Program-made: the position numbers and the translations under genes
Shown: positions 1-14,222 of the stretch, one piece after another
Position numbering within the stretch: the first letter of the stretch is position 1
Layout: every line of letters begins with the position of its first letter
Source of the DNA: a bacterium ADurb.Bin157
GTDB lineage: Bacteria > Muiribacteriota > Ozemobacteria > Ozemobacterales > Ozemobacteraceae
Direction: 5' to 3'
Assembly (NCBI GenBank): GCA_002070375.1
Contig: MWDD01000061.1
Span: 1 to 14,222 of the forward strand
Length of the DNA stretch: 14,222 nucleotides
The notes under the pieces: generated by a model
Database searches by the model: none
What the model was told of the DNA's origin: nothing
What the model saw: the letters and a program-made list of their open reading frames with translations, nothing else

Positions 1-1169
1 TCGCCGACTTTAATATGCTTATTCCAAGAAGAAGAGGTTGGCATATTAAAATTTGGAGTAATTAAATAGCTTTTATATCCGAAATTTTTTAAAAAATCAG
101 GAAGTACTAATCCAAGCTTTTCAGGTGGCTGCAAAAGAATGTTTATAGGAAAAGAGCCGTTGAATATGCTGTGCAAGGCGCTTAAGGTTCCGTTAGAAAC
201 GGAATGATGGTTGCCAAACTCAAGTCCGCGTTTGCAGTAGGTAGCGGTGCGGGGCATATATTGCTTGAAATAATCTCTTTTAATGCTTTCGATAATAATA
301 TACACGATTTTTTTTGGCAGTGATTCTTTTGTAAGCTGAATTTGCGGCTGAGAATAGCATTTGGCAATATCTATTTTAAAGGGCTGATTAAGTAAAGCTT
401 TTATAGAAGATGATTTAGACAGTGCCGGGTGAGGTGGCAAGGGCAGTGAGGCTGTGGTTATTCTGATAGAAATATACTCGGCTAAGCTTAATCCTGTGCA
501 AAAATAGTTAAAGTGAATTAAGTTGATAATGAGACAGATTAAGACTATTACGGTAATTTTTAGCAAATGAAGCGGTTTATTTAAAATTTTTGTTTTTCTT
601 TTGACGGCAAAAATCAATGGTGCGAGAGCCAGCATCAGCAAATCAAAAACAAACCTGAATATGCTTGTGTCGATAAAAGATAACGCGTTAAAGAATTCTT
701 TTGACACTTGTGGCATGTATATAAGCTGTCCGAGGCTTATATGTATTTTAGTTGTGGTAAGAAAAATGCGATCTGCGTAAAGCCAAATAATTAATAGCAG
801 ATTGATTATGTAAAATATTATCTTTATAGTTCGATATTTTGGGAGAGCTGAAATAATCAGCTCTTGAATCGATAAAAGCATAATACTGCAGTAAATAGCA
901 CATATCACCAACCAGTTTATCATGTTATGGCCATCATAAATGTATATAATTGCCATTATTGAAGTTAGCAAAGTTAGATGAAGAGTGAAGTTTTTGAAAA
1001 AGTCATATTTTTCTGAAAGAATATATATGGCAAGAGCAGCGGTTATAAATATGTGTTCGGGTGCAAAATTATGAAATAAGTTAAATTCGGGCAGAGGGTA
1101 TATTTGCCATATTACGCCAGCACCTAAGATAATTATTCCGATTATTTGTATTTTAATGGCGTTAGTCAA
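1..1169 (-). CDS. Sulfatase-like hydrolase/transferase with an N-terminal polytopic membrane domain (LTA-synthase / OpgB / phosphoethanolamine-transferase-like). It is partial: the C-terminus lies beyond position 1.
   Basis: I translated the minus strand by hand. An open frame runs from the stop at 1193..1191 down to position 1 with no stop, so it is absent from the ORF track. A candidate TTG start lies at 1169..1167, 6 nt after GGGAGA. The N-terminus is very hydrophobic (e.g. 'IQIIGIIILGAGVIWQIY', 'LVICAIYCSIMLLSI', 'KIIFYIINLLLIIWLY'), giving about 5 TM helices. It is followed by 'KKIVYIIIESIKRDYF' and 'GLEFGNHHSVSNGTLSALHSIFNGSFP', which resemble the metal-site/nucleophile-Thr region of LtaS/OpgB/EptA-type alkaline-phosphatase-superfamily enzymes. 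Confidence 0.6.
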   Translation of the reverse strand, partial: MTNAIKIQIIGIIILGAGVIWQIYPLPEFNLFHNFAPEHIFITAALAIYILSEKYDFFKNFTLHLTLLTSIMAIIYIYDGHNMINWLVICAIYCSIMLLSIQELIISALPKYRTIKIIFYIINLLLIIWLYADRIFLTTTKIHISLGQLIYMPQVSKEFFNALSFIDTSIFRFVFDLLMLALAPLIFAVKRKTKILNKPLHLLKITVIVLICLIINLIHFNYFCTGLSLAEYISIRITTASLPLPPHPALSKSSSIKALLNQPFKIDIAKCYSQPQIQLTKESLPKKIVYIIIESIKRDYFKQYMPRTATYCKRGLEFGNHHSVSNGTLSALHSIFNGSFPINILLQPPEKLGLVLPDFLKNFGYKSYLITPNFNMPTSSSWNKHIKVG

Positions 1170-1229
1170 GAGCGGTCTCCCAAAAAGCAGTCAATACTTT
1201 ACATGATCATTTGAATATAGTATCTTTTG

Positions 1230-1248
1230 TTTGTCTTGCCAAGACAAA
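1230..1248. promoter_or_regulatory. 19-bp palindrome (9-bp arms) TTTGTCTTG-c-CAAGACAAA in the leader or start region of the HEAT-membrane gene. It is a candidate operator or 5'-UTR hairpin.
   Basis: The left arm 1230..1238 reverse-complements exactly to the right arm 1240..1248. It lies between the TTG (1231) and ATG (1261) candidate starts. Confidence 0.35.
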
Positions 1249-1260
1249 ACGATAAAAACA

Positions 1261-2916
1261 ATGACAGATACTAAAAATGATTGGAAAAGTCTTATAATAA
1301 CGTCTTTGTCGTCAGACGACGACGATGCAAGACTTTTTGCATTAGATTTTTTGAGTAACCAAAATTCATTTTCGGTAGACATTCTTGCTGAGTTTATGCC
1401 CCTCTTAGAATCGTCGCTGGTTCACAGAGATACCAGAATCAGATATTTTGCAAGACGTGCGAGAAGCCACATTTTTGATTGTTTTCCTTCGTTAAACATA
1501 GACAAAACAACCGGCCCGGTTCGTGTAAGCGATTATAAACCGGTAATTAAAGAGGGCGAACAGATTACTGCGCAGCAAATTTTGTTGCATAAAATGTATC
1601 TTAAAAGCAGGTATGTGGTTTTTGACGCGATCGAAAGGCTTACCGAAAGCTCAGATCTCTCATTGGTCGAGCCCATGCTTAAGTTTTTAGCCGAGGAAAA
1701 AGACGAATACAAATTATCTTTTTTGGTTCGCAGATTGGGGCGCTTTAAAGATAAAAGAATACCCGAAGCATTGGTGCCGTTTCTCGATCACGAAGATTCA
1801 AGAGTGGTTGCGAACGCATTAGACGCTTTTGCCGAATTTGATTACCCAATGATTCAAAGCCGGTTGTTAGATTTGGCCATGTCTTCTGACAACAGAATAA
1901 GAGCGAATGCCATAAAAGTTTTATATAGGTATTCGCCTTCTATTTCTGAACACCATATTGCCGAAATGATAAAAAGTAAAAATATAGCTCTGCAAGATTC
2001 GGGAGTGTTTCTTTTGAATTGTCTCAGACCCTCAAACTTAGGACCATTGCTTGAAATAGCTTGCAACTCAAGTTATTCGTCTGTTCGTTTGAAGGCAATT
2101 CAAATTAAGCCGCCGTCAGAAGCAGAAAAACAAAATTCTGAAATGCTTTTGAAAGAAGATGTAGAAAAAATAGACCCCAAACGAGACGCTGTCTTTTTGA
2201 TCTGCGTTTTGGTTGTGGCGGCCATACTTTTGGCTTTTGAAACAGAAGCTAACAAGCACCTTCTTATAATATTGTTTATGGGTATAGGGGGTCTAATTAT
2301 GCTAAGACCCGATACAACAAGAACAAGTATTCAAAAATCGGCGCTGTCTATGGGTTTTTTAGCCTCTATGGTATGGGGTTCGACATATCTTATGATAATC
2401 CCCGGTTTAATGGGGCTTTGGCTTACTTGGAACGAAGGAAGAATTAATAAACGGGGTAACCCCGAAAAAGCGGCACCCGAAAATATTACAGCCTGGTTTT
2501 TTGTAATGGGCTCAATTATCATATCGCAGTTAGTACTCGGTGACAGATCTGTTTTGCTGCGTCTTTCAGGTAAATTTGCTCTATTATGCGATCCGGCTTT
2601 ATTAAAAGAGATAGCACCTGTTATAGCGACTCAATATCACTTTGATTTTATACTGTTTGTATTTATTTCGGGCATGGCAATAGGTATCGTCAGATTTAAG
2701 TCTTGGTTTCCGTTAAAACGCGATGAAAACGGCAATATAATTGAATCGGCCGCACAAAAAAAACTCATGCTCATAACGGCTGTGTTTTTGGTGCTTATAA
2801 CATTCTTGTGCTCTGTGCACTATGTCACCGGGCTGATGCGTGCAAGCGTGCTGCGCTCAAAACCGCCTATTGAGATTCTTACAACCGTTATCAACGGTTG
2901 TAAAGATAAGCTATAA
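1261..2916 (+). CDS. HEAT-repeat (PBS-lyase-type) protein fused to a C-terminal domain of about 6 TM helices. Function unknown.
   Basis: The ORF track gives 1231..2916 from a TTG start; an ATG at 1261 ('MTDTKNDW') is the more likely start. The N-terminal ~300 aa show repeated 'D.RVR..A...L' HEAT-like units ('DSRVVANALDAFAEF', 'DNRIRANAIKVLYRY', 'SSVRLKAIQI'). The C-terminal ~250 aa contain hydrophobic helices ('AVFLICVLVVAAILLAF', 'LLIILFMGIGGLIMLRP', 'FLASMVWGSTYLMIIPGLMGLWLTW', 'AWFFVMGSIIISQLVLG', 'FILFVFISGMAIGIV', 'LMLITAVFLVLITFLCSV'). Confidence 0.65.
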   Translation: MTDTKNDWKSLIITSLSSDDDDARLFALDFLSNQNSFSVDILAEFMPLLESSLVHRDTRIRYFARRARSHIFDCFPSLNIDKTTGPVRVSDYKPVIKEGEQITAQQILLHKMYLKSRYVVFDAIERLTESSDLSLVEPMLKFLAEEKDEYKLSFLVRRLGRFKDKRIPEALVPFLDHEDSRVVANALDAFAEFDYPMIQSRLLDLAMSSDNRIRANAIKVLYRYSPSISEHHIAEMIKSKNIALQDSGVFLLNCLRPSNLGPLLEIACNSSYSSVRLKAIQIKPPSEAEKQNSEMLLKEDVEKIDPKRDAVFLICVLVVAAILLAFETEANKHLLIILFMGIGGLIMLRPDTTRTSIQKSALSMGFLASMVWGSTYLMIIPGLMGLWLTWNEGRINKRGNPEKAAPENITAWFFVMGSIIISQLVLGDRSVLLRLSGKFALLCDPALLKEIAPVIATQYHFDFILFVFISGMAIGIVRFKSWFPLKRDENGNIIESAAQKKLMLITAVFLVLITFLCSVHYVTGLMRASVLRSKPPIEILTTVINGCKDKL

Positions 2917-3109
2917 AAGTTATAATCATAATACCTATAATAAGGATCCACAGAGGTTTAAGGACGTTGCTCTTTTCGGCAATAATGCTGAAACTGTCGG
3001 GTTCATTGTCGTCTCCGTCTGTTATGAGCTTGTTCCATTTTTTCAATCCATAAAGCAATAGCATAATTACGGCAATCAATATGATCAGATTTACCAAAGC
3101 AATAAGCAT
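2891..3109 (-). CDS. Small (72 aa) two-TM membrane protein, translationally coupled downstream of the TPR-deacetylase gene.
   Basis: The ATG at 3109..3107 lies 1 nt after the TGA stop (3113..3111) of the upstream gene. There are two strongly hydrophobic segments ('LIALVNLIILIAVIMLLLYGL', 'LWILIIGIMIITFIAYL') separated by an acidic loop. It overlaps the convergent 3' end of the HEAT gene by 26 nt. Confidence 0.45.
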   Translation of the reverse strand: MLIALVNLIILIAVIMLLLYGLKKWNKLITDGDDNEPDSFSIIAEKSNVLKPLWILIIGIMIITFIAYLYNR

Positions 3110-3110
3110 G

Positions 3111-4496
3111 TCAGTTTAGTTCCGCCGCGGTTGATGCAATAGGATGTATGGGCATATCCGGTTTCATTATTTGCGCTCTCTTGCGCTTAATCATCTCGGT
3201 TATAGTTATGAATTCATAACCGCTTTTTTTAAACGCCTTAATAATAATAGGCAATACCGAAGCTGCATGCGAATGAATATCGTGCATTAATACAATGCTG
3301 CCCGGGGAAATAGTTTTCATAACTCGCCACAATATCGCTTCCGGGGTTTTGCTTTCCCAGTCTCTGCTGTCAACATCCCATAAAATTTCGTGCCATTCTT
3401 CTTGTCTGAAAAGGTTCTTTAGTTGGCGGTTTGTTGCACCGTAAGGAGGTCTGACAATTTCGCAAGGTTTTCCTGTTATTCCGCTTATCAGATCGTTTGT
3501 TTTTCTTATGCTTTCAAGGGCTTCATTAGAGGTGCTTTTGACAAGCGACCTGTGATCCCAGGAGTGGTTTCCGATGTCGTGTCCTTCTTCAGAGATTTTG
3601 CCCACAAGTTCGGGAAAAGCCTCGGCTCTGTTGCCTACAACAAAAAATGTTGCTTTCGCCCCCTCTTTTTTTAGAATTTCTAATAGCTCGGGGGTGTTGG
3701 TGCGGTGTGGGCCGTCATCAAAGGTTAGGGCTATAAATTTTTCTTCTTGTGAGGGCTTGAATCCCTTAATTATTTCTATGCAGTCGTCGACAGACAGTGC
3801 TTTGATCCCGTCGGGAACACTGTAAGGTCTTGTTTTTCCGCCGTAAGTTGATGGAGGTATTCCCTTTGAAGTCTGTGTCCCTATAAGTCTTTCATTGTAG
3901 TGTGTCTGCGCCCCTATTTCGGTCGGAGGTTTATAACTTCCTATTGATAATGGCTCTCCGCCTTGCTTCTTGGGAAGTTGAACATGGTATCCAAGTTCAG
4001 AGAGCTGTTTTAATGCCGGCTGAAACTCAGGGCTTTGTGCCAAGCATTGTTGGAAAGCTTCGGCGGCTTTAGCTGTATTGCCGTCTTCTCGTTCTAAGAG
4101 TCCTAAGTTATAATAAATCCAATATGAGTTTGAATAAACCAAACCGGTTCTGAAAATAAGGCGCGCTTGATCATATCTTTTTTGTTGTTTCAGTGCCGAA
4201 CCTAAATTATTGTAGAGATGCACATAGGTCGGGTCTACCGACATTGCGAGTTTCCAAAGATTTATTGCTTCATCTAATTTACCTGCCCGTGCGTAAATAA
4301 TGCCCAAAGAGTTCAAGGCCGGGACATCTCTTGGATTCTTTTTAACACGACTTCTCAAGGCAGAAAAATCTTTGAGCAAATCGGGCGGGCTGCTTTGATC
4401 GTAGCTTTCTGATTGAGAATAGGCACGTTTCATAAGCATTTCACAGCTTATGCAAGCCAAAAATAAACTTAATATTAGGGCTAATGTTTTTTTCAT
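3111..4496 (-). CDS. Secreted/lipoprotein TPR-repeat protein fused to a CE4 (NodB-type) polysaccharide deacetylase domain.
   Basis: There is a signal peptide 'MKKTLALILSLFLACISC' with a possible lipobox Cys. TPR units are present ('LNSLGIIYARAGKLDEAINLWKLAMSVDP', 'YNNLGSALKQQKRYDQARLIF', 'YYNLGLLEREDGNTAKAAEAFQQCL'). The NodB catalytic motifs are 'ALTFDDGP' (Asp-Asp), 'HSWDH' (His-His) and 'RPPYG'. Confidence 0.85.
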   Translation of the reverse strand: MKKTLALILSLFLACISCEMLMKRAYSQSESYDQSSPPDLLKDFSALRSRVKKNPRDVPALNSLGIIYARAGKLDEAINLWKLAMSVDPTYVHLYNNLGSALKQQKRYDQARLIFRTGLVYSNSYWIYYNLGLLEREDGNTAKAAEAFQQCLAQSPEFQPALKQLSELGYHVQLPKKQGGEPLSIGSYKPPTEIGAQTHYNERLIGTQTSKGIPPSTYGGKTRPYSVPDGIKALSVDDCIEIIKGFKPSQEEKFIALTFDDGPHRTNTPELLEILKKEGAKATFFVVGNRAEAFPELVGKISEEGHDIGNHSWDHRSLVKSTSNEALESIRKTNDLISGITGKPCEIVRPPYGATNRQLKNLFRQEEWHEILWDVDSRDWESKTPEAILWRVMKTISPGSIVLMHDIHSHAASVLPIIIKAFKKSGYEFITITEMIKRKRAQIMKPDMPIHPIASTAAELN

Positions 4497-4519
4497 TTGT
4501 ATAAACTATCGACAAAATA

Positions 4520-4555
4520 AACGCCTCTCTTTACGTAAATTAAGAGAGAGGCGTT
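4520..4555 (-). terminator. Candidate rho-independent terminator for the ankyrin-M48 operon.
   Basis: An imperfect 12-14-bp stem AACGCCTCTCTT (4520..4531) pairs with AAGAGAGAGGCGTT (4542..4555) around a 10-nt loop. On the minus strand it is followed by a T-rich tract (TTATTTTGTC), 20 nt past the M48 stop. Confidence 0.5.
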
Positions 4556-4574
4556 AAATTTGCAGTGAACGCTT

Positions 4575-5423
4575 TTAGGCGCAATCAAGGCCGGTGATTT
4601 TTGAATATTCCCCGTCTTTTATCCAGTTGTCGATGTGTTTCGCTCTTGTAATGGTAAAGGGATGACTCATCTTGGCAGTTATGAAGGCTGTGTAAGTTTT
4701 ATTTATGAAAGATTCGTCTGAAGAGTCTTCATAAGCCCTGATCTGGCGCAAAAACTCGTTTTCATCCATGTCGTCGTAATATTTGGGTGTGGCAGCTGCA
4801 AGTTTCATAAATGCCAGATTGGCTGCTCTTTGACTTTGAACGGCGAGAAGGCCGGCTCTGTCGGCAGAAAGCTCCGATTTGCGTTCCCAATCATAGATGG
4901 CCATTTCCAGTCCGGTACTGATCATGCCCGAAAACCCAAAAGTTGCGGCAGAAGCCAGCTCAAGCACCATTTTAAAGTTGCGTGCCATGGTTTTATAGAG
5001 CACGTGGCCGCATTTAATGTGACCAAGCTCATGGGCAAATACAAACATTATTTCTGATTCGCTGAAAAGCTCTAATAGCCCTGATGTCACAACTATAAAA
5101 GGGCGAGTGTCTCCGTAAGTGTAACTGTTGGGAACAGGGTGGGTTGTAACGTATAAATCAGGTTCGGGCACATTGAGTATTTCTGCCGATTCTCTTAAAA
5201 TGCGTCGAATGTTAGGAAGCATTTTGCCGCGAACTTGAATGTTGGATGCTAAATTTGTAATTCTGAAAAATTGTTCAAAACCGATTTCCATTAGTTTTTT
5301 TACGAGGTATTCGAAGCCGGGTATGCCGCGCAGTGCTTTTATGGCTTGTCGGTCCCAGGGGTGCTGAAAATCTTTCGCTTCAAGGTCGGGGAATTTTTTG
5401 AACTCGTGTTTAGTCATATCCAT
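4575..5423 (-). CDS. M48-family Zn metallopeptidase (HtpX/Ste24-like catalytic core), apparently soluble with no TM helices.
   Basis: The 'FAHELGHIKCGH' HEXXH motif is present, with a downstream 'SELSADRAG' (third Zn-ligand Glu region) typical of M48. There are no hydrophobic segments. A strong RBS, AGGAGG, lies 8 nt upstream of the ATG and sits inside the last codons of the ankyrin gene. Confidence 0.85.
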   Translation of the reverse strand: MDMTKHEFKKFPDLEAKDFQHPWDRQAIKALRGIPGFEYLVKKLMEIGFEQFFRITNLASNIQVRGKMLPNIRRILRESAEILNVPEPDLYVTTHPVPNSYTYGDTRPFIVVTSGLLELFSESEIMFVFAHELGHIKCGHVLYKTMARNFKMVLELASAATFGFSGMISTGLEMAIYDWERKSELSADRAGLLAVQSQRAANLAFMKLAAATPKYYDDMDENEFLRQIRAYEDSSDESFINKTYTAFITAKMSHPFTITRAKHIDNWIKDGEYSKITGLDCA

Positions 5424-5996
5424 CTAGTTTCCTCCTGTTTGGGTAAGAAGTAAAATAACTTCTCGCCGGTCTTGCAGAACAGCCAAGTCTTTGGGAGTCT
5501 GCCCGACATGATTTGTGACAAAAGAGTCTGCACCTTTGTTAAGAAGTCTTTTCACTACACTTGCATGCCCTTGCTGGGATGCAATGTGTAAAGGAGTCCA
5601 ACCGTCATTGTCTTTTTCGTTAAGGTCTGCGCCAAGTTCAAGCAGTTCTGTGACAATAGGCTCGCAGCCACGGTATGCGGCCCAGTGCAAGGGTGTCCAG
5701 CCGTCTGATTCTTTTAATCTGAAATTTGCTCCCTTTTTGATAAGCAAAGAAAAGGTCGCGGGCTTTTGACGCGCTGCCGTAAGGTGAAGCGGCGTTACGT
5801 TGTCTAAGGTAAGAATGTCAACAGGAATGCCCTTTGACAACAAAAGTTCTGTAACTTCTACCATTCCCATTTTGGCGGCAACGTGAAGTAAGGTTATACC
5901 GTTTGGTTCTTTAATGTTGAAATTTTCGCCTGAATTTAGGAGCTTAAGGGCCTCTGTCGTATCGTTATTATAGACAGCGTCAAATAATTTATTCAT
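5424..5996 (-). CDS. Ankyrin-repeat protein (about 5 ANK units).
   Basis: It shows repeated 'G.TPLH.AA..G....V..LL..GA' units ('GITLLHVAAKMGMVEVTELLLSKGIP', 'NVTPLHLTAARQ', 'GWTPLHWAAYRGCEPIVTELLELGADLN', 'GWTPLHIASQQGHASVVKRLLNKGAD', 'GQTPKDLAV'). Its TAG stop (5426..5424) directly abuts the M48 ATG (5423). Confidence 0.88.
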   Translation of the reverse strand: MNKLFDAVYNNDTTEALKLLNSGENFNIKEPNGITLLHVAAKMGMVEVTELLLSKGIPVDILTLDNVTPLHLTAARQKPATFSLLIKKGANFRLKESDGWTPLHWAAYRGCEPIVTELLELGADLNEKDNDGWTPLHIASQQGHASVVKRLLNKGADSFVTNHVGQTPKDLAVLQDRREVILLLTQTGGN

Positions 5997-6086
5997 TGCA
6001 AGCCTTTTTTTATTGATATAATCCCTAAAAGTAATTATACTAAAAGACAGTGCAAGTGTGAATTTATATTTTAACGGAGGGATATT
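5997..6086. promoter_or_regulatory. Divergent promoter region between the ankyrin-M48 operon (minus) and the SPFH-zinc-ribbon gene (plus), with interleaved candidate sigma70-like elements.
   Basis: Plus strand: an extended -10 'TGaTATAAT' at 6014..6022, with a weak -35 TTGCAA at 5996..6001 (15-nt spacer). Minus strand: -35 TTCACA (plus coordinates 6062..6057), a 17-nt spacer, then -10 TATAAT (6039..6034). RBS GGAGGG lies 6 nt before ATG 6087. Confidence 0.35.
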
Positions 6087-7232
6087 ATGGGATTTTGGGC
6101 TAATCAGACTCGTTCTGTTATCGAATGGAAGGACGCTTCTCCTGATATACTTATCTGGCGCTGGGACGGAACTAACGATGAATTGAAAAATGCTTCAAAA
6201 CTTATAGTCAACCCCGGACAAGCTGCAATTTTTGTATACAAAGGCGAAATCAGAGCTGTTCATGAAGATCCGGGAATGTTCGAACTTAGAACAGGTAATA
6301 TTCCCTTTTTAACAACTTTGTCAAAAATCATGCAGAATTTTACTTCTGAAAATAAAGCTAATGTTTATTTTGTTAAAATAAATCAAATGGTCAATCAAAA
6401 ATGGGGAACAAAAGCACCTGTTAAATACAATGACCCCGTTTATAAATTCCCCGTAGGAATGCGTGCATTCGGCAACTTTAGCTTCAGAATTACCGATATA
6501 AGAATGTTCTTCAACGAATATGCCGGAAATCAAGACGTTGTGCCTGTTTCTTACATAAGAAACATAATCGTCGACAGAATATTGCAGCCAATGACAGATA
6601 TTTTTGCAACAGCCGGTTTCAGCTATGCAGAAATAGACAAAAACCGCATGGAACTCTCTGCCAAAGTTCAGCAAGCTGTGGCTCCCGAGTTTTTGCCCCT
6701 TGGCTTCGAAATGTCAGATTTCAGAATAGAAAATACCGATTTTGATGAAAAAACACAAGAAAGAATCGACAAAATTTCTGATAAAATGGCTGATGTTCAC
6801 GCGGTTAACGCTATGGGCGACATAAATCAGTCATCTATGAACGCATATGCAAACGTCGAACAGCTCAGAGCTCTCAATACAGCAGCGGGCAATAACGGTG
6901 CGGCAGGCCTCGGAGTAGGTATGGGCGCAGGTATGGGTCTGGGTGCCGGCATGGGAATGATGGGCGGAATGCAGCCTGTCGCAAATAAATCAGGTGCCAC
7001 AGCCAAATGTGCTTCCTGTAACGCTTCAATGAGCGAAACAGCCAAATTCTGCCCCGAATGCGGCGCTAAGACCGGCCCGGCTACAGTGGCTTGCATTGCA
7101 TGCAAAGAACAGATTCCTCAAAACTCTAAGTTTTGCCCTGAATGCGGCAAACCTCAGTCTGTTTCATGTAAAAAATGCAACGCCCCGATCGGTTCGGCAA
7201 GATTCTGCCCCGAATGCGGCGAAGCAAACTGA
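6087..7232 (+). CDS. SPFH/band-7 (COG4260, YdjI-like stomatin/prohibitin-family) protein fused to a Gly/Met-rich low-complexity linker and three C-terminal zinc-ribbon modules.
   Basis: The N-terminal 'VIEWKDASPDILIWRWDGTNDELKNASKLIVNPGQAAIFVYKGEI' matches the characteristic start of COG4260 SPFH proteins. The linker is 'AAGNNGAAGLGVGMGAGMGLGAGMGMMGGM' (6882..6977). Three CxxC-x10-FCPECG units follow (7008..7229). RBS GGAGGG. Confidence 0.8.
   Translation: MGFWANQTRSVIEWKDASPDILIWRWDGTNDELKNASKLIVNPGQAAIFVYKGEIRAVHEDPGMFELRTGNIPFLTTLSKIMQNFTSENKANVYFVKINQMVNQKWGTKAPVKYNDPVYKFPVGMRAFGNFSFRITDIRMFFNEYAGNQDVVPVSYIRNIIVDRILQPMTDIFATAGFSYAEIDKNRMELSAKVQQAVAPEFLPLGFEMSDFRIENTDFDEKTQERIDKISDKMADVHAVNAMGDINQSSMNAYANVEQLRALNTAAGNNGAAGLGVGMGAGMGLGAGMGMMGGMQPVANKSGATAKCASCNASMSETAKFCPECGAKTGPATVACIACKEQIPQNSKFCPECGKPQSVSCKKCNAPIGSARFCPECGEAN
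7008..7229 (+). repeat. Intragenic tandem repeat encoding three zinc-ribbon units.
   Basis: An exact 19-mer TTCTGCCCCGAATGCGGCG occurs at 7047..7065 and 7203..7221. A diverged copy TTTTGCCCTGAATGCGGC is at 7131..7148. The units are spaced about 75-85 bp apart. Confidence 0.7.
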
Positions 7233-7250
7233 TTACTTCTAACTAACAAT

Positions 7251-7284
7251 AAAACGGGTGATAAAAAATTATCACCCGTTTTTT
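7251..7284. terminator. Bidirectional rho-independent terminator between the convergent SPFH gene (+) and PIN-like gene (-).
   Basis: A perfect stem AAAACGGGTGATAA (7251..7264) pairs with TTATCACCCGTTTT (7269..7282) around a 4-nt loop AAAA. It has an A-run on the left and a T-run on the right, so it can act as a U-tract hairpin on either strand. Confidence 0.8.
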
Positions 7285-7297
7285 ATTGCCCAAAATT

Positions 7298-7843
7298 CTA
7301 ATTGTTTTTGAGATATTCTGAAAAGCTTTTGTAACCGAGTCTACGCTTTTTATTTAACATATTTTTCCATATTGTGTTTCCTTGCTCTTCGTTTATTAAA
7401 CCTGCTGTCATTGCTTCTTTTAAGATGGCTCCGGTTGTGACGTGTTTCAGGTTATATAGTTGAACATAGTCTGAGATGTCTTTGAGATTATTACTCGCAA
7501 GTATTCCGTTTCGCTCTTTTGCTAATGCTATTGCTGCAGCTTCGCCATCGCCAATAATTTTGTGGCCCGGGTCAGGATTTTTCGTCAGTTTGACAAAAAG
7601 GTCATATTCTGTACTGCCAATCATAATTGATTCTAAAGTTGCTTGACCATTCATAAAAAGTTTATCAACTTGCGCTTTCATTTTTTTTATGTGATTGAGC
7701 CCGGGATGTGAAAGTTCATTGTAGACTTGAGTCGGAATAACGATTCTTCCCGGATAAAGTTTGGCAAGAATGCTTTCATTATCAATCCATAGAAATGCTG
7801 AGAGGCAGTCGTTGTCGAAAAAAAGAGGTTCAGTCAACGACAT
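7298..7843 (-). CDS. PIN-like (DUF4411-like) protein. It is the third gene of the XRE-ImmA cassette and a putative nuclease/effector.
   Basis: The preferred start is ATG 7843..7841 ('MSLTEPLFFDND...'), preceded by AGGAAGG. It overlaps the ImmA stop by 14 nt; the ORF-track start at 7864 lacks an RBS. PIN-fold hallmarks include a beta1 acidic motif 'LFFDNDCLSAFL', 'RIVIPTQVYNELS' (conserved Glu) and 'IIGDGEAAAIALAKERNGILASNNLKD', which resembles the GEAEaIaLA...DD motif of PIN_3/DUF4411-type proteins commonly annotated next to ImmA/IrrE genes. Confidence 0.6.
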   Translation of the reverse strand: MSLTEPLFFDNDCLSAFLWIDNESILAKLYPGRIVIPTQVYNELSHPGLNHIKKMKAQVDKLFMNGQATLESIMIGSTEYDLFVKLTKNPDPGHKIIGDGEAAAIALAKERNGILASNNLKDISDYVQLYNLKHVTTGAILKEAMTAGLINEEQGNTIWKNMLNKKRRLGYKSFSEYLKNN

Positions 7844-8588
7844 CACCTTCCTCTGCTTGATCATAAACTAAGTCGGGACGAAATGCAGTCAAGAGGAGTT
7901 CTTCATATTTTCCGATAGATATTAAATCGCTTTTTAGTAATTGATCTGCTTGATTAATATAGTGACCGTATGTTTTATATTGCTCTTCTACAGGAAGCGG
8001 TCGATATAGTTCTGAGCTAAACCCCATTGTTTCAGCTCTATTTCGGACACTAATCGCTAGATATTTTTCAAAATTAGCGCGTTTCATATAAGGGCTTTCT
8101 TTAAGACGAATTACCATTGCCTGATGACTCACCCTAAAATGCTGCTCAAGCCTAATTATATCATCCAGCGAGAGTTTGTTATCTTTGTGCTTAGCTGCCA
8201 GCTGCGCGGCTCTGTAATCTAATTCGGCGTCCGGTATCAGAAAATATGAAGCGAACATATCTGCTTCTTTTTCAATGGTTTTTCCATCGCCGATTTTTTT
8301 TGCACAAACAGATACCATGTTTTGATCGTAATACAGATGATAAAACTCGTGTGCCAAAGAAAAGCGCTGGCGGCCGAGAGACATTGCTGAATTAATTGCA
8401 ATTACGCAATCATTCCTCTTTCCTTTGATGCACATGCCGCTTAGAGTATCGCCCATAGGATAATAAACTAGCGTGAGCCTTTCGATGCTTTGTGCCAGAG
8501 AAAAAATATCAACGGGTGAATGGCTGTCTTCACCCAGTTTCATTCTGAGTTGAATTGACTTAGTCATCAAGTCAGCTTTATTCATCAC
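7830..8588 (-). CDS. ImmA/IrrE-family (COG2856) Zn metallopeptidase.
   Basis: It carries the 'SLAHEFYHLYYD' HEXXH motif and a downstream 'EKEADMFASYFLIPDAEL' (third-ligand Glu), typical of ImmA/IrrE. A GTG/ATG start at 8588/8585 sits 8-11 nt after GGAGGG and overlaps the XRE stop (8578..8580). Confidence 0.88.
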   Translation of the reverse strand: MMNKADLMTKSIQLRMKLGEDSHSPVDIFSLAQSIERLTLVYYPMGDTLSGMCIKGKRNDCVIAINSAMSLGRQRFSLAHEFYHLYYDQNMVSVCAKKIGDGKTIEKEADMFASYFLIPDAELDYRAAQLAAKHKDNKLSLDDIIRLEQHFRVSHQAMVIRLKESPYMKRANFEKYLAISVRNRAETMGFSSELYRPLPVEEQYKTYGHYINQADQLLKSDLISIGKYEELLLTAFRPDLVYDQAEEGDVVD

Positions 8589-8928
8589 GCTTTTTGCCCT
8601 CCAGCAGGCTGCTCATGAATTCAGAGTTGAGCGCAATTTTATTGATAGCGCTAATGGCCTCGAGGTCGCTTGAAGACAATTCACTGCATCTGAAGGCGCA
8701 AGACAGCGGTCTCGTTGCTACGACATCATTTACAATCGCTGTTGATGAAACGCCAAAAAGCGAAGCAAGTTTATCTAACATGTCTGCTGATATGCTACGC
8801 TCCCCTTTTTCGATTTTGCTAATCAGGCTTTGATCTACACCTAAAAAATTAGCTATATTTTGCTGGTTATACCCGGCGTTATCTCTTAGCATTCGTAGAT
8901 TTTCGCTAATAATTTTATTGTCTGTCAT
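8578..8928 (-). CDS. XRE-family helix-turn-helix transcriptional regulator. It is the first gene of the cassette.
   Basis: An HTH_3-like N-terminus is present ('ISENLRMLRDNAGYNQQNIANFLGVDQSLISKIEKGERSISADMLDKLASLFGVS'). The preferred start is ATG 8928..8926 (GGAGGG about 10 nt upstream). The ORF-track TTG at 8937 has only a 2-nt spacing to the SD. A C-terminal extension of about 50 aa follows the HTH. Confidence 0.85.
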   Translation of the reverse strand: MTDNKIISENLRMLRDNAGYNQQNIANFLGVDQSLISKIEKGERSISADMLDKLASLFGVSSTAIVNDVVATRPLSCAFRCSELSSSDLEAISAINKIALNSEFMSSLLEGKKRDE

Positions 8929-8954
8929 GTCTTTCAATCCCTCCGTCCACTTTT

Positions 8955-9009
8955 ATTATATCTTAAAATTGTCATAAATATCAATTTGTAATTCAAACTT
9001 TTATGACAA
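8955..9009 (-). promoter_or_regulatory. Candidate promoter of the XRE-ImmA-PIN operon, with a 10-bp inverted-repeat operator.
   Basis: Minus strand: -35 TTGATA (plus 8984..8979), an 18-nt spacer, then -10 TATAAT (plus 8960..8955). A perfect inverted repeat TTGTCATAAA (8969..8978) / TTTATGACAA (9000..9009) has one half-site inside the spacer and the other just upstream of the -35. Confidence 0.5.
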
Positions 9010-9067
9010 AACATAATGATTTCTAACAAATTGCCCTGTCACTGTGTTAGTTTTTGATGCAAATTCA

Positions 9068-9076
9068 TGATATAGT
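9068..9076 (+). promoter_or_regulatory. Candidate extended -10 (TGaTATAGT) for the VOC gene.
   Basis: It lies 41 nt upstream of ATG 9117 and has the same TGnTATA architecture as the 6014 element. No clear -35 is present. Confidence 0.25.
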
Positions 9077-9116
9077 CGGTGCGGATACCATGTAATGGTC
9101 AATAGGAGCCATGAAA

Positions 9117-9509
9117 ATGAGACTAGATGGATTTGGGATTATGGTAGATGATATGCCGAAAATGGTTCGGTTTTACAGAGATGTGCTTGGGTTTGAAATT
9201 AAAGAAGATGAGAATACGACAAATGTCTTTTTGCAAAAGGACGGAACCCTTTTTCTTTTGTATAGAAAATCAGATTTTGAAAAAATGACAGGCAGAAGTT
9301 TATCTTATGCAAAAGGGATAAATGGTCATTACGAGATAGCTTTATCAGTTTCTGATTATGAAGCAGTTGACAAAACGTTCGAATTCCTTGTGCAGGCCGG
9401 TGCTCAGCCGGTGATGCCTCCAACAACAGAACCTTGGGGACAACGCACTTGCTACATTGCTGACCCTGAAGGCAATCTGATTGAAATTGGTTCATTTAAC
9501 GTGAAATAA
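9117..9509 (+). CDS. VOC-family protein (glyoxalase / bleomycin-resistance / dioxygenase fold), small single-domain.
   Basis: 'LDGFGIMVDDMPKMVRFYRDVLGFEI' and '...HYEIALSVSDYEAVDKTFEFLVQAGAQPVMPPTTEPWGQRTCYIADPEGNLIEI' match the paired beta-alpha-beta-beta-beta VOC module pattern. The preferred start is ATG 9117 (AGGAG 8 nt upstream) rather than 9111. Confidence 0.8.
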   Translation: MRLDGFGIMVDDMPKMVRFYRDVLGFEIKEDENTTNVFLQKDGTLFLLYRKSDFEKMTGRSLSYAKGINGHYEIALSVSDYEAVDKTFEFLVQAGAQPVMPPTTEPWGQRTCYIADPEGNLIEIGSFNVK

Positions 9510-9538
9510 TAAATTTGTTAGGCACCCAATAAAGCCGG

Positions 9539-12481
9539 TCATTTAGCCGGATTAAGCAATTTTTGATACATTTTCATAAGTTCGGCAACACAGCTGCTTT
9601 CGGTCATTGTTTTGTAATCAAACCCGTATGCAGTCATTACTGCACAATCGTTCGCCTGATGAGCTTTTCGAAGTTCTGAGGGCATAGTGGTTTCGTCATA
9701 AAGGTCTGCAAGCGAGCTATCTGGATAAAGTGCCCTTGCATCAAGTATTGCCTGTGCTGTTTGTTCGATTTTTGCTTTTTGCGCATCTGTCGGAGTTGGC
9801 CACGGAAAATTGTTGTAAACAATATCTTTTGAGTAACGGTAATCGCTTTTAAGTCTTCCGCAAACAGCACGCATCCAAGCCATGTGTACATTTGAGGTCA
9901 GTATTCCAAAGTGATAAAGAGAGGCGTCGGTGATAATTACAGCAGAGTCTGTTGGAATAATAGATTCATCTAAAAAACCAAGCGGAATGTAACGTCTTCT
10001 TTCAGATGAAACACGGGGCACAATCACGTATTTAGCTGGATTAATCTGCTCTCTGAAAAGTGTTGGAGTCAGAGCTAATTTCTGTCTTCCGGGGTCAGGA
10101 GCTTTTAAGCGGTCTTCTTTACAAGCTTCCACTCGCTTCATCACTTTATGCATTTTTCTCAAATCAGCCGGATTTATGCCGACAAGCCAAAGACAGTATC
10201 TCTTCTTTCCATTGATGTATTCTTCTGAACCTGTGAGTCGTTTGATATATTTAGCAGCATTAGGTTCATTTTTTATAAATTCTTCGTATTCATTTGCTTC
10301 AATAATCAAATGCCCACCATCAGCCGGTCTGTTTCCTGTGATCATTGGTATGACATTTTTGCACAGTGGTTTGCTTCGGCTCTCAACAAAAACATCAGGG
10401 CCTTCAACCAAATAAGCATTTATGTTTTTAACTTCTCTAACTTTGTCTCCGTCAAACAAATAGCTTTGTTTGCAATCGTCTGTGCTACTAAAACCAACAA
10501 TTACACAGTGAACGTGGGCCTTTAAGAAGCTTTCACTATCCCACCTGAAAGTGCGATGAGCAAAGTCTATATGAATCTTAAACTGCTCAAAGAGCGGCTT
10601 CCAAAGTGCGGCAACCTGTTCGCCCTGTGTAATGGAATTCGTTGAAACAAAAGCAACTTTTGTATTTGTTCCAGCTATAAGCTGAGAAGCTTTGTAATAC
10701 CAGCCCGACACGTAGTCTATTTTGCCGGCAGTCTTATGTGCCTTGCCTTTTTCGTTTACAAAAACTGAGAGCAAATCTTCTTTCTGTTCTTTGCTTTGCA
10801 GTGAATAGCCAACAAACGGCGGGTTTCCCAAGATATAATCGTAATGATTGCCTATCAGCGATTTGACCGGCATTTCAGGCTTAACGAGCTTTTTGGTGTA
10901 TAAGTCGATTTCGTCGTAATGAACAATCGGTTCATTTACTTGATTTTCGTCTGCTTTTATTAGGTTTACTTGCTTAGCATAAACAACGGTTCTGTCAGAT
11001 TCAGATGAACCGAAAAGATAACGCCAATCAAGCTTCAGTGCGTTGCCCTCAACGATATTTGAGTAGCTTTTCAGCGGCAAATAATCAAGGTCGACCTGCA
11101 TAAGCTTTTCAGTCTCTTTCATCATCTGCGATTCGGCTATCCAAAGGGCGGTTCGGGCAACCGTAACTGCAAAATCATTAATTTCGATGCCGTAAAACTG
11201 ACCGATATTCACTAAAATCGGCTCAAACTCTACGCCCATAAGCTTTTGCCCTTTGTTTTCTTCGGCAAGAGCTTCATTTTCAAGTTTACGAAGTGAAATA
11301 AAGGTTTCGGTCAAAAAGTTTCCGCTGCCTGCAGCCGGATCTAAAAACCGCAGAGAAGCTAGTTTTTGTCGGAATTCCCGCAGTTTGATCTTTTTGTTTT
11401 TGTCTTGTTTTGTGGCTTTAATTTTTTCAAATTCGGCTTTAAGCTCATCAAAGAATAACGGGTCTATGACCTTGTGGATGTTTTCAATGCTGGTGTAGTG
11501 CATACCGCCTGTGCGCCTTGTTACAGGATTAAGAGTAGATTCAAACAATGCGCCGAAAATAGTAGGCGAAATACCCGACCAGTCAAAACGAAAACTTGCA
11601 TGATTTATCAGCTCATCGCATATTTCTTCGTTAAACTGCGGTATTTCTACTGTTTCGTCAGAAAACAAACCGCCGTTTACATATGGAAAAGCCGCTAAAT
11701 CATCGTTCATATAAAGGTCTCTGTCTTCTATCTTGGTGTCAAGCACCTTAAACAGTTTAATAAGCTCTTCTCTAACATGCTTCGGCTGAAACTGCTGCAA
11801 ATATTTTCCAAACATGTCGTGAGTATCGAAAACTCCGGCATCTTCTGCATACAGACAAAATACCAACCTAACGCATAAAATGTTTATACTGCGCAAAGTC
11901 TCATGACTTTCTGGGTTCTTGTATTGTTTTAAAATAAGGCTGTAAAGCTTGCCAACAAGATTACCCGCTTCAATAGACACCTGCATTTCACGCTGAATGT
12001 TTTCGTTACCTTTATCAACTAGAAACTGCAAACGATAATATTCTGTTGGCAAGTCTTTCAGAAAAATCTGCTCAGGTTCACCGTTTGGTTGTTCCATGTC
12101 ATAAATCAAAAACTCCGCAAAATTGCACGTTACTATCCATCTGGGTCGTAGGGAATAAGGCAGTTCTGAAGCATATCTCTTCGCCTGCTGAAAAGGCGAC
12201 AGCAAGGTGCCGTCAGACTGTCGGATGCCGTCTCTGAGGTTTTTGCCTAAACTTTTTTGCTCAATCATAACGTGTGTGTCACGTATATAAGCGTCTATAA
12301 ACGAGGTGTGGTCGAGCTTTACCTGTTCTTCAAAGTCAATAAATTTTTCGGGGTGCGGAATATTGAGCACATCACGAAGAAGCGAAAGCCAAAATGCTTG
12401 GCTCTGCCCTTTTTCATATCCTTTATCTTTCCAAAACTCCGCAAATTCTTTTGCAGAATTGCTATGCGCGTTTGAAGACAT
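9539..12481 (-). CDS. MmeI-family type IIL (IIG) restriction-modification enzyme. It is a single polypeptide with endonuclease, gamma-class N6-adenine methyltransferase and TRD regions.
   Basis: This 980-aa protein has an N-terminal 'FIDAYIRDTHVMIEQKSLGK' (D...EXK, matching the MmeI D70/E80/K82 region). Further MmeI hallmarks are 'CVRLVFCLYAEDAGVF', 'NGGLFS', 'HYTSIENIHKVIDPLF', motif I 'FLDPAAGSGNFL' and motif IV 'LGNPPFVGY'. The C-terminal 'ELRKAHQANDCAVMTAYGF...SCVAELMKMYQKL' resembles the MmeI C-terminus. RBS AGGAG lies 6 nt upstream. Confidence 0.9.
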   Translation of the reverse strand: MSSNAHSNSAKEFAEFWKDKGYEKGQSQAFWLSLLRDVLNIPHPEKFIDFEEQVKLDHTSFIDAYIRDTHVMIEQKSLGKNLRDGIRQSDGTLLSPFQQAKRYASELPYSLRPRWIVTCNFAEFLIYDMEQPNGEPEQIFLKDLPTEYYRLQFLVDKGNENIQREMQVSIEAGNLVGKLYSLILKQYKNPESHETLRSINILCVRLVFCLYAEDAGVFDTHDMFGKYLQQFQPKHVREELIKLFKVLDTKIEDRDLYMNDDLAAFPYVNGGLFSDETVEIPQFNEEICDELINHASFRFDWSGISPTIFGALFESTLNPVTRRTGGMHYTSIENIHKVIDPLFFDELKAEFEKIKATKQDKNKKIKLREFRQKLASLRFLDPAAGSGNFLTETFISLRKLENEALAEENKGQKLMGVEFEPILVNIGQFYGIEINDFAVTVARTALWIAESQMMKETEKLMQVDLDYLPLKSYSNIVEGNALKLDWRYLFGSSESDRTVVYAKQVNLIKADENQVNEPIVHYDEIDLYTKKLVKPEMPVKSLIGNHYDYILGNPPFVGYSLQSKEQKEDLLSVFVNEKGKAHKTAGKIDYVSGWYYKASQLIAGTNTKVAFVSTNSITQGEQVAALWKPLFEQFKIHIDFAHRTFRWDSESFLKAHVHCVIVGFSSTDDCKQSYLFDGDKVREVKNINAYLVEGPDVFVESRSKPLCKNVIPMITGNRPADGGHLIIEANEYEEFIKNEPNAAKYIKRLTGSEEYINGKKRYCLWLVGINPADLRKMHKVMKRVEACKEDRLKAPDPGRQKLALTPTLFREQINPAKYVIVPRVSSERRRYIPLGFLDESIIPTDSAVIITDASLYHFGILTSNVHMAWMRAVCGRLKSDYRYSKDIVYNNFPWPTPTDAQKAKIEQTAQAILDARALYPDSSLADLYDETTMPSELRKAHQANDCAVMTAYGFDYKTMTESSCVAELMKMYQKLLNPAK

Positions 12482-12526
12482 GCTTAGCTCCTAATTCTGT
12501 GATGAAATCTCTACTCTTATATAAAA

Positions 12527-12555
12527 ATCTTATCATTGAACAAAGTTTTATTCAA
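12527..12555 (-). promoter_or_regulatory. Candidate sigma70-like promoter for the MmeI-family gene.
   Basis: Minus strand: TTGAAT (plus 12555..12550), a 17-nt spacer, then TAAGAT (plus 12532..12527). An alternative is TTGTTC-16-TATAAG, 12 nt further downstream. Confidence 0.3.
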
Positions 12556-12572
12556 CAACCTATAAAATAGCC

Positions 12573-12601
12573 ACAGGCAATCTACCAGATAGATTGCCTG
12601 T
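12573..12601 (-). terminator. Candidate terminator of ftcD, possibly an insulator before the RM gene.
   Basis: A perfect 12-bp stem ACAGGCAATCTA (12573..12584) pairs with TAGATTGCCTGT (12590..12601) around a 5-nt loop CCAGA. On the minus strand it is followed by GGCTATTTTATAGG, 26 nt after the ftcD stop. Confidence 0.55.
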
Positions 12602-12626
12602 AAATGCTAGTATAAATTCAAAACAA

Positions 12627-14222
12627 TTACTTAGAGCGTTCGTCGAGGATATTCAGAATTTCTTTGCAGCAGGTTTCTGCTCTGAGTTTCATTGATTCGG
12701 CTTCTTGTAAGGTTTCTGACTTGAATTTTTCGTCTTTGATATCTTTCATGTTAATTAAAACATTTTGATATGCGCCCCAGATGCCAAGTTCAAGTGATCT
12801 TGCGCCAACCTGAAGGTCTGATTTTGAAGCTATATTGCAGCAGTTTGCGCATTCCTTCATCATTTCCCAGGCTCTGTCGCCCAATCGCATAGTGTTTAAG
12901 GGTACATTGATGGCCTTTTTAAGGCCTTCCTGCATTTGTTCAAATCTGCGAGCTTTTTCTGCTTCGGTTTTTTGAGGCAGTCGCATGGCTTCTACATAGT
13001 CGTTGAATGCATTTGTATCAGCGTCTATCATAGGAATAAGGCCCATGGTGGTGTTGTGCAAAACGGGTATGATTTTGCGCAAAGCATTTTCGTGTTCTTC
13101 AAATTTTCTGACGCCGTATGTCAGTTTTGAAACCATGGCGCCTAACCCTGACCCTATGGCTCCGATCGCTGCTGAGGCGCTTCCGCCGCCCGGTGCCGAG
13201 GTTCGGGCATTTATGGTTTCGATAAACTTGCGTGTGCTCATGCTTGCGAGAGGTTCGTTCGGTTCTTCTTTTATAATGTAGTCAATTATGCGTTCTTTGG
13301 GCTTAAACTGCGATACTGAGCTTAAGCCCAAACGATCGATTACAAGTTTGATTTTTTGGTCTTCTTCCAAAATGAAGAGGTTTTCTTTTTCGATGTAGTA
13401 ATCAGCTGCTTTAAGCATGGGTTCTAAGGGAATAAGGCCTACAAGCTCTGAGCCTGCCACACCAACCTGAAGCTGTGCCGCTTCTTCCTTAACTGCTTCA
13501 AATACTTCGTGCGGAGCCGTTATATTGTAGTTGTTAAGGTTAAATGAGCATTGCGCCATATTATATTCATCAACAAACCAGCCTAAGCCTTTTAATTCTT
13601 TGAATCGACCGGGTTCACCGTCGCCTCTGCCTTGTTCTCTTAAGTTCAGAGCAATTCGGTGAGCTTGATTGTTGGTGCCCAAAATGTTCACATTATATGC
13701 TACCAAAAAGAATCTTGCGCCTGTAACGGTTGCGCCCCATTCGGGTACAAACTCGGCAGGCCCGTAATCGGGAGCCCATTCGGGCTGTTTGATTTTTTCA
13801 GATAAGCCTTCGTATTCGCCTTTGCGAATGTCGGGCAATTTTTTTCTGTAAGCTTTTTCTTGTGAGTGTTCATAAAGATACAAGGGGATTCCAAGCTCTT
13901 CAGATGCTCTTCGCGCAAATTCTTTAGATATTTCAACGCATTCTTCCATTGTTACGTTAGCTACAGGAACAAAAGGACAAACATCTAAAGCGCCCATTCG
14001 AGGGTGTTCGCCATGTTGGGTGCGCATGTCAATTTTGGCTCGTGCTGTTCTGCAAGCTGAAAGCGCGCCCTCTATTATAGATTCGGGATCGCCGACAAAG
14101 GTGTATACAGTGCGATTTGTTGATTTGCCTGGGTCAACATCGAGCAGAGTAACGCCTTTTACGCTTTTAATCGAATCGGCTATGGCACTTATAACCTCTT
14201 GGTTTCGGCCTTCAGAAAAGTT
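12627..14222 (-). CDS. ftcD: Bifunctional glutamate formimidoyltransferase / formimidoyl-THF cyclodeaminase. It is partial: the N-terminus lies beyond the window end.
   Basis: 'HGEHPRMGALDVCPFVP' is the conserved formiminotransferase motif. The C-terminal half ('SAPGGGSASAAIGAIGSGLGAMVSKLT') is the cyclodeaminase domain. I translated 14028..14222 by hand: the frame stays open to the window edge and reads 'NFSEGRNQEVISAIADSI...GKSTNRTVYTFVGDPE', the canonical FTCD N-terminus. The ORF-track Met at 14027 is therefore internal. Confidence 0.85.
   Translation of the reverse strand, partial: NFSEGRNQEVISAIADSIKSVKGVTLLDVDPGKSTNRTVYTFVGDPESIIEGALSACRTARAKIDMRTQHGEHPRMGALDVCPFVPVANVTMEECVEISKEFARRASEELGIPLYLYEHSQEKAYRKKLPDIRKGEYEGLSEKIKQPEWAPDYGPAEFVPEWGATVTGARFFLVAYNVNILGTNNQAHRIALNLREQGRGDGEPGRFKELKGLGWFVDEYNMAQCSFNLNNYNITAPHEVFEAVKEEAAQLQVGVAGSELVGLIPLEPMLKAADYYIEKENLFILEEDQKIKLVIDRLGLSSVSQFKPKERIIDYIIKEEPNEPLASMSTRKFIETINARTSAPGGGSASAAIGAIGSGLGAMVSKLTYGVRKFEEHENALRKIIPVLHNTTMGLIPMIDADTNAFNDYVEAMRLPQKTEAEKARRFEQMQEGLKKAINVPLNTMRLGDRAWEMMKECANCCNIASKSDLQVGARSLELGIWGAYQNVLINMKDIKDEKFKSETLQEAESMKLRAETCCKEILNILDERSK

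Follow-up and report, generated by a model that had tools for sequence, protein, structure and literature searches.

Does an ankyrin-repeat gene whose stop codon directly adjoins the start codon of a metallopeptidase gene encode a subunit of that peptidase? The question is raised by a 14,222-nucleotide stretch of DNA (hereafter the window) from the bacterium ADurb.Bin157 (Ozemobacteraceae; contig MWDD01000061.1, positions 1 to 14,222), in which a gene for an ankyrin-repeat protein (ANK) is followed on the minus strand, without a spacer, by a gene for a zinc metallopeptidase of family M48. An earlier note on this DNA had taken the abutment to imply coupled translation and probably a stoichiometric complex. 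We find that the peptidase gene, the ankyrin gene and a third gene, encoding an SPFH protein with zinc ribbons, form a block that is specific to Riflebacteria and kept throughout core Riflebacteria, the orientation of the M48 gene being variable. Since ank and m48 lie on opposite strands in the sister lineage, their tight coupling is a local arrangement and no proof of an obligate complex. A stop codon that abuts a start codon is not enough to identify a protein complex.

The ank-m48 operon and the block it belongs to

The genes and signals of the block in the window are the following.

5424..5996, minus strand: ankyrin-repeat gene (ank), 190 amino acids, TAG at 5426-5424
4575..5423, minus strand: gene for an M48-family zinc metallopeptidase without transmembrane (TM) helices (m48), 282 amino acids, ATG at 5423-5421
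5431..5436, minus strand: Shine-Dalgarno (SD) sequence AGGAGG for M48, within ANK codons 187-189 (T-G-G-N stretch), 7 nt before the ATG
6034..6062, minus strand: promoter-like site for the ank-m48 transcript, TTCACA-17 nt-TATAAT, 11/12
4512..4556, minus strand: intrinsic-terminator-like hairpin and U-tract closing the ank-m48 unit
6087..7232, plus strand: gene for a cytosolic YdjI/SamI-type SPFH protein (PF13421), divergent from ank; the protein has a linker rich in Gly and Met, and its C-terminus bears three zinc ribbons
6013..6041, plus strand: promoter-like site for the SPFH gene, TTGATA-17 nt-TATACT, 10/12

Read on the minus strand, the junction is ...ACA GGA GGA AAC TAG ATG GAT ATG..., with zero spacer between the ANK stop and the M48 start, and both the abutment and the location of AGGAGG inside the last ANK codons are as the earlier note had described them. 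The promoter-like site of ank lies 40-65 nt upstream of the gene, in the 90-bp ANK/SPFH intergenic region, where it faces the promoter-like site of the SPFH gene. The hairpin (4555-4520; fold -22.8 kcal/mol, z -4.2) follows the M48 stop and was also found as an inverted repeat. Given a promoter-like site before ANK and a terminator hairpin after M48, the unit is a bounded bicistronic one: ank and m48 form one short operon (promoter-like site, ANK, internal SD, abutting stop and start, M48, hairpin), transcribed divergently from the SPFH-zinc-ribbon gene.

How far does this geometry argue for translational coupling? A stop codon at or over the next start, with an SD within the upstream gene, is present in the window and in one related locus, L083, where the SD reads AAGGAG and the two genes share 11 nt. 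RNA structure hiding the M48 SD was sought at the junction and none was significant (z -0.84). Since the SD is not hidden by structure, M48 could also initiate on its own, and coupling is possible, not enforced. The second mark of a coupled pair, an occluded SD combined with an arrangement kept among orthologs, is absent, for 22 ortholog loci are convergent. Other co-directional pairs in the window overlap too (M78/HTH by 11 nt, o188/M78 by 35 nt), and with overlaps and abutments so frequent the ank/m48 geometry is not exceptional statistically. The proposed coupling thus stands as a geometry of the window and L083; as a conserved arrangement built on a sequestered SD it does not.

A scan with an M48 alignment, one genome per species, yielded 80 loci, whose open reading frames (ORFs) were then searched with the window proteins. 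The best matches of M48 and SPFH are in Candidatus Riflebacteria / Ozemobacteraceae genomes, and M48, ANK and SPFH are adjacent in 20 of the 23 Riflebacteria-type species genomes (L001-L019, L021). Three basal loci (L020, L022, L023) carry M48 with neither ANK nor SPFH adjoining. In a neighbour-joining tree of M48 two sister clades separate by layout. Clade A, in which ank and m48 are co-directional, consists only of the window strain (L081, L082, L089) and L083 (M48 81% identical). In clade B, ANK is convergent with M48 on the opposite strand in 20/20 genomes and in two metagenome contigs of the same adjacent layout (L090, L091). Adjacency of ANK and M48, for which the earlier note had suggested a synteny check, hence recurs in other genomes; the co-directional layout is confined to clade A.

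The M48 and ANK 3' ends in clade B overlap by 14-23 nt in 19/20 genomes, and in all but one of the 22 loci once the two contigs are included. This leaves no room for a terminator, and antisense read-through is therefore possible. The overlap (L001 1517-1539 and its equivalents in L002-L018 and L021) comes in lengths of 14, 17, 20 and 23 nt, each of them 2 mod 3. Four loci of the set (L009, L016, L020, L022) are labelled Erysipelotrichia, Methylomirabilis or Avigastranaerophilus though their M48, ANK and SPFH group with Riflebacteria, which suggests mis-binned or mislabelled contigs.

The order deacetylase (PDA)-M48-ANK-SPFH is the same in both clades, with PDA and M48 each flipped. This rules out a single inversion from layout B to layout A; as the two genes flipped separately, at least two rearrangements lie between the layouts. 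A search for rearrangement scars as inverted repeats around M48 gave only the terminator hairpin. Throughout, M48 is kept at the 3' end of ANK in both clades, with an intergenic space of at most 1 nt. The flanks vary (upstream lie PDA, an SLC12 permease or others, downstream an OMP, ClpA/B or others), and the three-gene core is intact where they differ (L010, L012, L013, L015, L016, L021). In a mirror-tree comparison every gene pair correlates (r 0.84-0.95); the partial r is 0.51-0.62 for ANK-M48 and about 0 for ANK-SPFH. The unrelated exported deacetylase, given SPFH, also reaches a partial r of 0.50 with ANK, and the signal was therefore set aside as unspecific.

The most constant neighbour of ANK is SPFH, not M48. 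The divergent ANK/SPFH pair is present at every locus holding an ANK ortholog, with a spacing of 30-208 nt wherever an overlapping ORF call does not obscure the SPFH start. At L087/L172 a 256-residue ANK ortholog adjoins an SPFH gene 57% identical to that of the window, and no M48 gene lies less than 10 kb away. Neither ANK nor M48 accompanies the more distant SPFH homologs (Ca. Ozemobacter sibiricus, L171, L088). The earlier note had overlooked the SPFH gene.

The three proteins

By all sequence and fold criteria tested, the peptidase belongs to family M48. It matches PF01435 with 89.5 bits (gathering score 20.3; E 3e-25), its only Pfam matches are PF01435-related, and its modelled structure is consistent with the M48 fold. 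The motifs and the one segment of further interest are these.

5019..5033, minus strand: HELGH zinc-binding/catalytic motif, residues 131-135; across 150 subfamily members E132 and H135 are invariant and the conservation of H131 is at least 90%
4860..4874, minus strand: E184-x3-D188, third zinc ligand and plug-stabilising Asp, matching BepA E201/D205
4644..4664, minus strand: H254-P255-x4-R260, the HPX4R autoinhibitory-plug motif, here H254-P255-FTIT-R260
4890..4976, minus strand: residues 150-178, a helical hairpin of moderate hydrophobicity, modelled with low confidence; it separates the HExxH and Glu helices and takes the place of the alpha6-lid of BepA

The three motifs are invariant in an alignment of 14 sequences (47-71% identity) and at least 90% conserved among the 150 subfamily members. 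H21 and D24 of the N-terminal, HPWD-containing helices likewise show at least 90% conservation in the subfamily. The HEXXH...E site is thus intact, as the earlier note had read it. An 'autoinhibitory plug' of Asp, Arg and His, formed by ExxxD and HPX4R, has been described for BepA and stated to be common to the M48 family, and the concept of an alpha6-lid that inserts into the membrane comes from the same study of BepA (bioRxiv 10.64898/2026.07.01.735768).

The same note had judged the peptidase to be soluble, and this is borne out in so far as no 19-residue Kyte-Doolittle window (KD19) exceeds 1.39 and no signal peptide was found, the N-terminus MDMTKHEFKKFPDLEAKD being polar. The sequence supports a cytoplasmic protein that lacks an anchor. 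What the note had missed in asking for a check of cryptic TM segments is residues 150-178, which form no classical TM helix and may nevertheless be a counterpart of the lid that allows peripheral contact of M48 with the membrane. In the window M48 this segment, the only hydrophobic one outside the core, has a KD19 of 1.23 and a predicted local distance difference test (pLDDT) score of 52-69 and contains acidic residues; in relatives the KD19 reaches 1.6-1.83.

The protein is not HtpX, Ste24 or BepA. The identities HtpX (M48B) and Ste24 (M48A) are ruled out by the lack of multiple TM helices (4 in HtpX, 7 in Ste24) and by HtpX NCBIfam scores of 27-45 bits against cut-offs of 245-422 (best 44.8 against 341); a BepA-type identity is ruled out by the lack of a signal peptide and of a C-terminal TPR domain. 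A defence role of M48 and SPFH was rejected as well, PADLOC giving no match for either.

With full sets of catalytic (HExxH, Glu) and autoinhibitory features (ExxxD, HPx4R plug, hydrophobic lid), the window M48 is an anchor-less member of a large uncharacterised subfamily. A profile search recovered 967 cluster representatives (50% identity clusters) at E <= 1e-30; the window M48 and 111 representatives all match PF01435 (112/112). At about 57 loci of other phyla M48 orthologs occur without ANK and keep other company (the L024-L080 set). In Myxococcota M48 directly follows an Abhydrolase_2 gene (phospholipase/carboxylesterase type) in 32 of 38 loci, often overlapping it by 4 nt (e.g. L027 5959-5962, L085 6001-6004), and a CN_hydrolase gene precedes it in 19/19 loci of the Acidobacteriota type. 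These partners are lineage-specific and conserved. Since M48 is tightly coupled to varied upstream genes, coupling is no mark of a dedicated subunit.

Domains found among the 111 representatives are Zn_Ribbon_1 (42), DZR (35), fn3 (3), GYF_2 (2), and FHA, TIR and TPR (one each); fusions to ANK number 0. Multidomain anchor-less relatives are exemplified by P0330, P0331, P0336, P0346 and P0416. About 38% of the relatives carry a C-terminal DZR/Zn_Ribbon_1; others have GYF_2, fn3 or an N-terminal FHA, one is a TIR-M48-zinc-ribbon protein, and some bear unassigned N-terminal domains of 140-190 residues. The C-terminus of the Riflebacteria SPFH bears the same ribbon types (GYF_2 in the subclade L012/L016-L018). 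These common modules link the M48 subfamily to this type of SPFH independently, though weakly, because zinc-ribbon and GYF_2 modules are promiscuous (PMC3581485). No SPFH gene was seen on the contigs of the zinc-ribbon M48 relatives; on one contig the neighbour is a further DZR protein, and the rest are too short.

ANK is an ankyrin-repeat protein throughout (Ank_2 132 bits, cut-off 27.3, E 1e-38; Ank 120 bits, cut-off 21.1), with neither a signal peptide nor a further domain found. Its AlphaFold2 model (pLDDT 83.5) comprises six helix pairs, namely an N-cap, four internal repeats and a C-cap. In ankyrin repeats, positions 5, 13 and 14 of the 33 are the variable, target-contacting ones, as in DARPins and designed ankyrin libraries. 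In the three central repeats of ANK these are V67/A75/R76, W100/Y108/R109 and W133/Q141/Q142. Eight of the nine are invariant among orthologs and one is Y/F, at a mean column identity of 50%, the orthologs being 41-65% identical. Invariance at canonical binding positions argues for a conserved ligand, for which M48, SPFH or the two together are candidates on the sequence evidence; L087, with no M48 neighbour, retains these residues as well. These orthologs were taken from the fetched loci, since a general homolog search gave generic ankyrin proteins and missed known orthologs; a metagenome scan with the ANK alignment found true orthologs at 3/80 loci, and the other loci hold unrelated ankyrin proteins that have neither M48 nor SPFH close by. 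A role of ANK as an effector is unlikely, given the lack of a signal peptide, the conserved chromosomal ortholog and matches to NCBIfam type IV secretion system (T4SS) effector models far below the cut-offs. PADLOC returned only generic ankyrin models for it.

The SPFH protein matches Band_7_1 with 150 bits (cut-off 24; E 9e-44) and DZR with E 2e-12, and no TM helix was found in it, the highest KD19 being 1.12, in the Gly/Met linker. Its Bacillus subtilis relative YdjI/SamI is described as a cytosolic SPFH protein that is brought to the membrane under stress by YdjG/H and that localises PspA (bioRxiv 10.64898/2026.02.06.704340). Among the window ORFs none matched PspA, YdjG or YdjH. In L012, L016, L017 and L018 (P0243, P0246, P0248, P0251) the C-terminal zinc ribbons of SPFH are replaced by GYF_2 (PF14237), with ANK and M48 as unchanged neighbours. 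Distant SPFH-zinc-ribbon homologs (L088 4489-5985; L169/L170 10407-12563) have Tim44-like (PF04280) proteins beside them or at a distance of about 3 kb; among these proteins, one also gives a faint TerB-like match.

What the block may do

Does the persistence of the block reflect a common function of its products? The reading that we favour, at a probability of about 0.45, is that ANK is an adaptor for M48, for SPFH or for both in a membrane-proximal proteolysis module. ANK would act in the cytoplasm as an adaptor that binds proteins through a conserved ligand groove, the YdjI-like SPFH protein would assemble at the inner face of the membrane, and ANK would tether or gate the plug-inhibited M48, whose plug would be freed by engagement of the lid. 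The translational coupling of clade A would then be one way to co-express ank and m48, with no requirement for a fixed stoichiometry. In favour of this reading, the adjacency of the block survived at least two rearrangements between clades A and B and persists while the flanks vary; the operon anatomy and its recurrence in L083, the invariant binding positions of ANK, the plug and lid features of M48 and the modules common to the M48 subfamily and SPFH count for it as well.

Several observations weigh against it. The clade B genes are convergent, with overlapping 3' ends, hence their co-translation is impossible and mutual transcription interference may occur. Each gene is also found in other company: the ANK-SPFH pair without M48 (L087), M48 without ANK or SPFH in the basal relatives and in all other phyla sampled, and SPFH homologs without ANK in other Riflebacteria. 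The representatives of the M48 subfamily include no ANK fusion, and outside this phylum the coupling of M48 to unrelated enzymes encoded upstream is no less tight. Given the general synteny of the region in clade B, part of the conservation may be inheritance and not selection. Zinc-ribbon and GYF_2 modules are promiscuous, and all sequences are metagenome-assembled genomes or metagenome contigs. On balance we regard the block as a modest, well-delimited, lineage-specific gene-neighbourhood lead from an uncultured phylum.

The alternative that survives best, unlikely as we hold it to be, is that ANK serves SPFH, from a bidirectional promoter region, by binding or regulating the scaffold, M48 being merely the next gene and its abutment the result of a local rearrangement. 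It accounts well for a divergent pair that is found at every ANK-ortholog locus, including L087 with no M48 within 10 kb and with the invariant binding positions retained, and that stays fixed while M48 changes orientation. It does not account for M48 remaining within 1 nt of the ANK 3' end in clade A and clade B alike, through rearrangements and changes of flank, nor for the SPFH-type C-terminal modules of M48 relatives, which tie the peptidase to that network, and SPFH homologs elsewhere do without ANK.

Less probable again is the absence of any functional relationship, with three unrelated cytoplasmic genes adjacent by ancestry in a compact genome and the junction geometry a by-product of packing. 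The synteny that in clade B extends over the entire region, the many overlaps and abutments in the window, the limitation of the association to one phylum and the unspecific mirror-tree signal all fit such an explanation. Against it, the three-gene core persists with both flanks changed and across at least two rearrangements, and the M48 and SPFH families have accessory modules in common.

The least likely is the obligate, stoichiometric complex of the earlier note, enforced by coupling and with ANK as a substrate-recognition or regulatory subunit: it draws on the abutting codons and internal SD of the window, the 11-nt overlap with SD in L083, the conserved binding groove of ANK, the autoinhibition of the M48 family, for which an activator is needed (bioRxiv 10.64898/2026.07.01.735768), and the interaction domains fused to other subfamily members (FHA, TIR, TPR, fn3), and it ranks low because the convergent layout dominates, coupling being limited to one small clade against 22 other loci, while the SD is not sequestered and so enforces nothing, M48 does without ANK in most lineages, and in Myxococcota it is equally coupled to an alpha/beta-hydrolase, which identifies no dedicated subunit.

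The adaptor reading also has a bolder form, which we consider improbable: M48, ANK and SPFH would be an undescribed cytoplasmic counterpart of scaffold-controlled membrane proteolysis, with ANK bridging SPFH to an autoinhibited M48 and insertion of the lid freeing the plug. The YdjI/SamI-like SPFH assembly would mark stressed sites of the inner membrane, where the hydrophobic lid of M48 would enter the membrane and the HPX4R plug would be freed, as in BepA at the BAM complex; in other phyla the peptidase would reach such sites by fused zinc-ribbon/GYF_2 modules in place of ANK.

Should the block prove functional, it would provide the first context for a large uncharacterised subfamily of anchor-less M48 peptidases (about 970 clusters at 50% identity), extend the theme of SPFH-protease partnership to the cytosolic YdjI/SamI type, and present a bacterial ankyrin protein as a housekeeping adaptor, not a host-directed effector.

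Surrounding features and comparison with known systems

Downstream of the terminator, at 3111-4496, lies a gene for a TPR and polysaccharide-deacetylase (PgdA/PdaB-like) protein with a lipoprotein-type signal peptide; in most Riflebacteria loci it neighbours M48, in other order and orientation. On the other side of the block, a 5.4-kb strain-variable insertion (7234-12626) separates the stop codons of SPFH and FTCD. L081 lacks it and has 77 bp there, between flanks 96-98% identical; in L089, which stops at window position 9139, the SPFH-proximal end of the insertion is present. The genes of the insertion encode a PDC-S70-like 188-residue protein, a CapP-like M78/ImmA-IrrE peptidase, a CapH-like HTH repressor, a glyoxalase-fold protein and an MmeI-family type IIG restriction-modification enzyme, and judging by these it looks like a small defence island. 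At its edge lies a hairpin with a 14-bp perfect stem (7251-7282), flanked by two convergent genes, SPFH (stop 7232) and o188 (stop 7298); it probably terminates transcription in both directions.

How does the block compare with systems already described? We found no description of an ANK-M48 or an M48-SPFH(PF13421) system in the literature, in agreement with the earlier note, which knew of no such pairing. Conserved blocks with an SPFH gene beside a protease gene are likewise formed by HflK/C-FtsH, stomatin-NfeD/STOPP and prohibitin-m-AAA, and the notion of proteolysis near the membrane under control of a scaffold would be common to them and to the block. Those pairs combine a membrane-anchored SPFH protein with an AAA+ or serine protease, whereas here the SPFH is a cytosolic PF13421 protein with zinc ribbons, the protease is an M48 peptidase and ANK lies between them. 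M48 and SPFH, moreover, are never in one operon, being divergent in the window and, in clade B, on the same strand but split by an opposite ANK. The likeness to HflKC-FtsH or stomatin-NfeD fails on these defining features and would hold as analogy only.

The PspA-YdjGHI (SamGHI) system of B. subtilis has the same SPFH subtype (Band_7_1); its zinc ribbon is separate (YdjG), whereas here it is fused. In the portion of its description that we could draw on (bioRxiv 10.64898/2026.02.06.704340) no protease or ankyrin protein was found as part of that system.

Among peptidases, HtpX, the M48B heat-shock protease of the inner membrane, gives the best NCBIfam and PDB matches around the HExxH region of the window M48, and its active site faces the cytoplasm; it has four TM helices, of which the window protein has none. 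In E. coli, HtpX is genetically linked to the SPFH protein QmcA. The putative M48 of Geobacter sulfurreducens (Q74D82, PDB 3c37), a structural-genomics entry, is 18% identical and is without the HPWD-containing helices at the N-terminus. As a model of the mechanism the nearest is BepA, the periplasmic M48 of E. coli (PDB 6sar/6ait), which combines plug, lid and repeat domain, its sequence similarity to the window M48 being too low for HMMER against PDB. BepA is exported, carries its TPR in cis and acts at the BAM complex, whereas the window M48 is predicted to be cytoplasmic and its repeat module, ANK, would act in trans.

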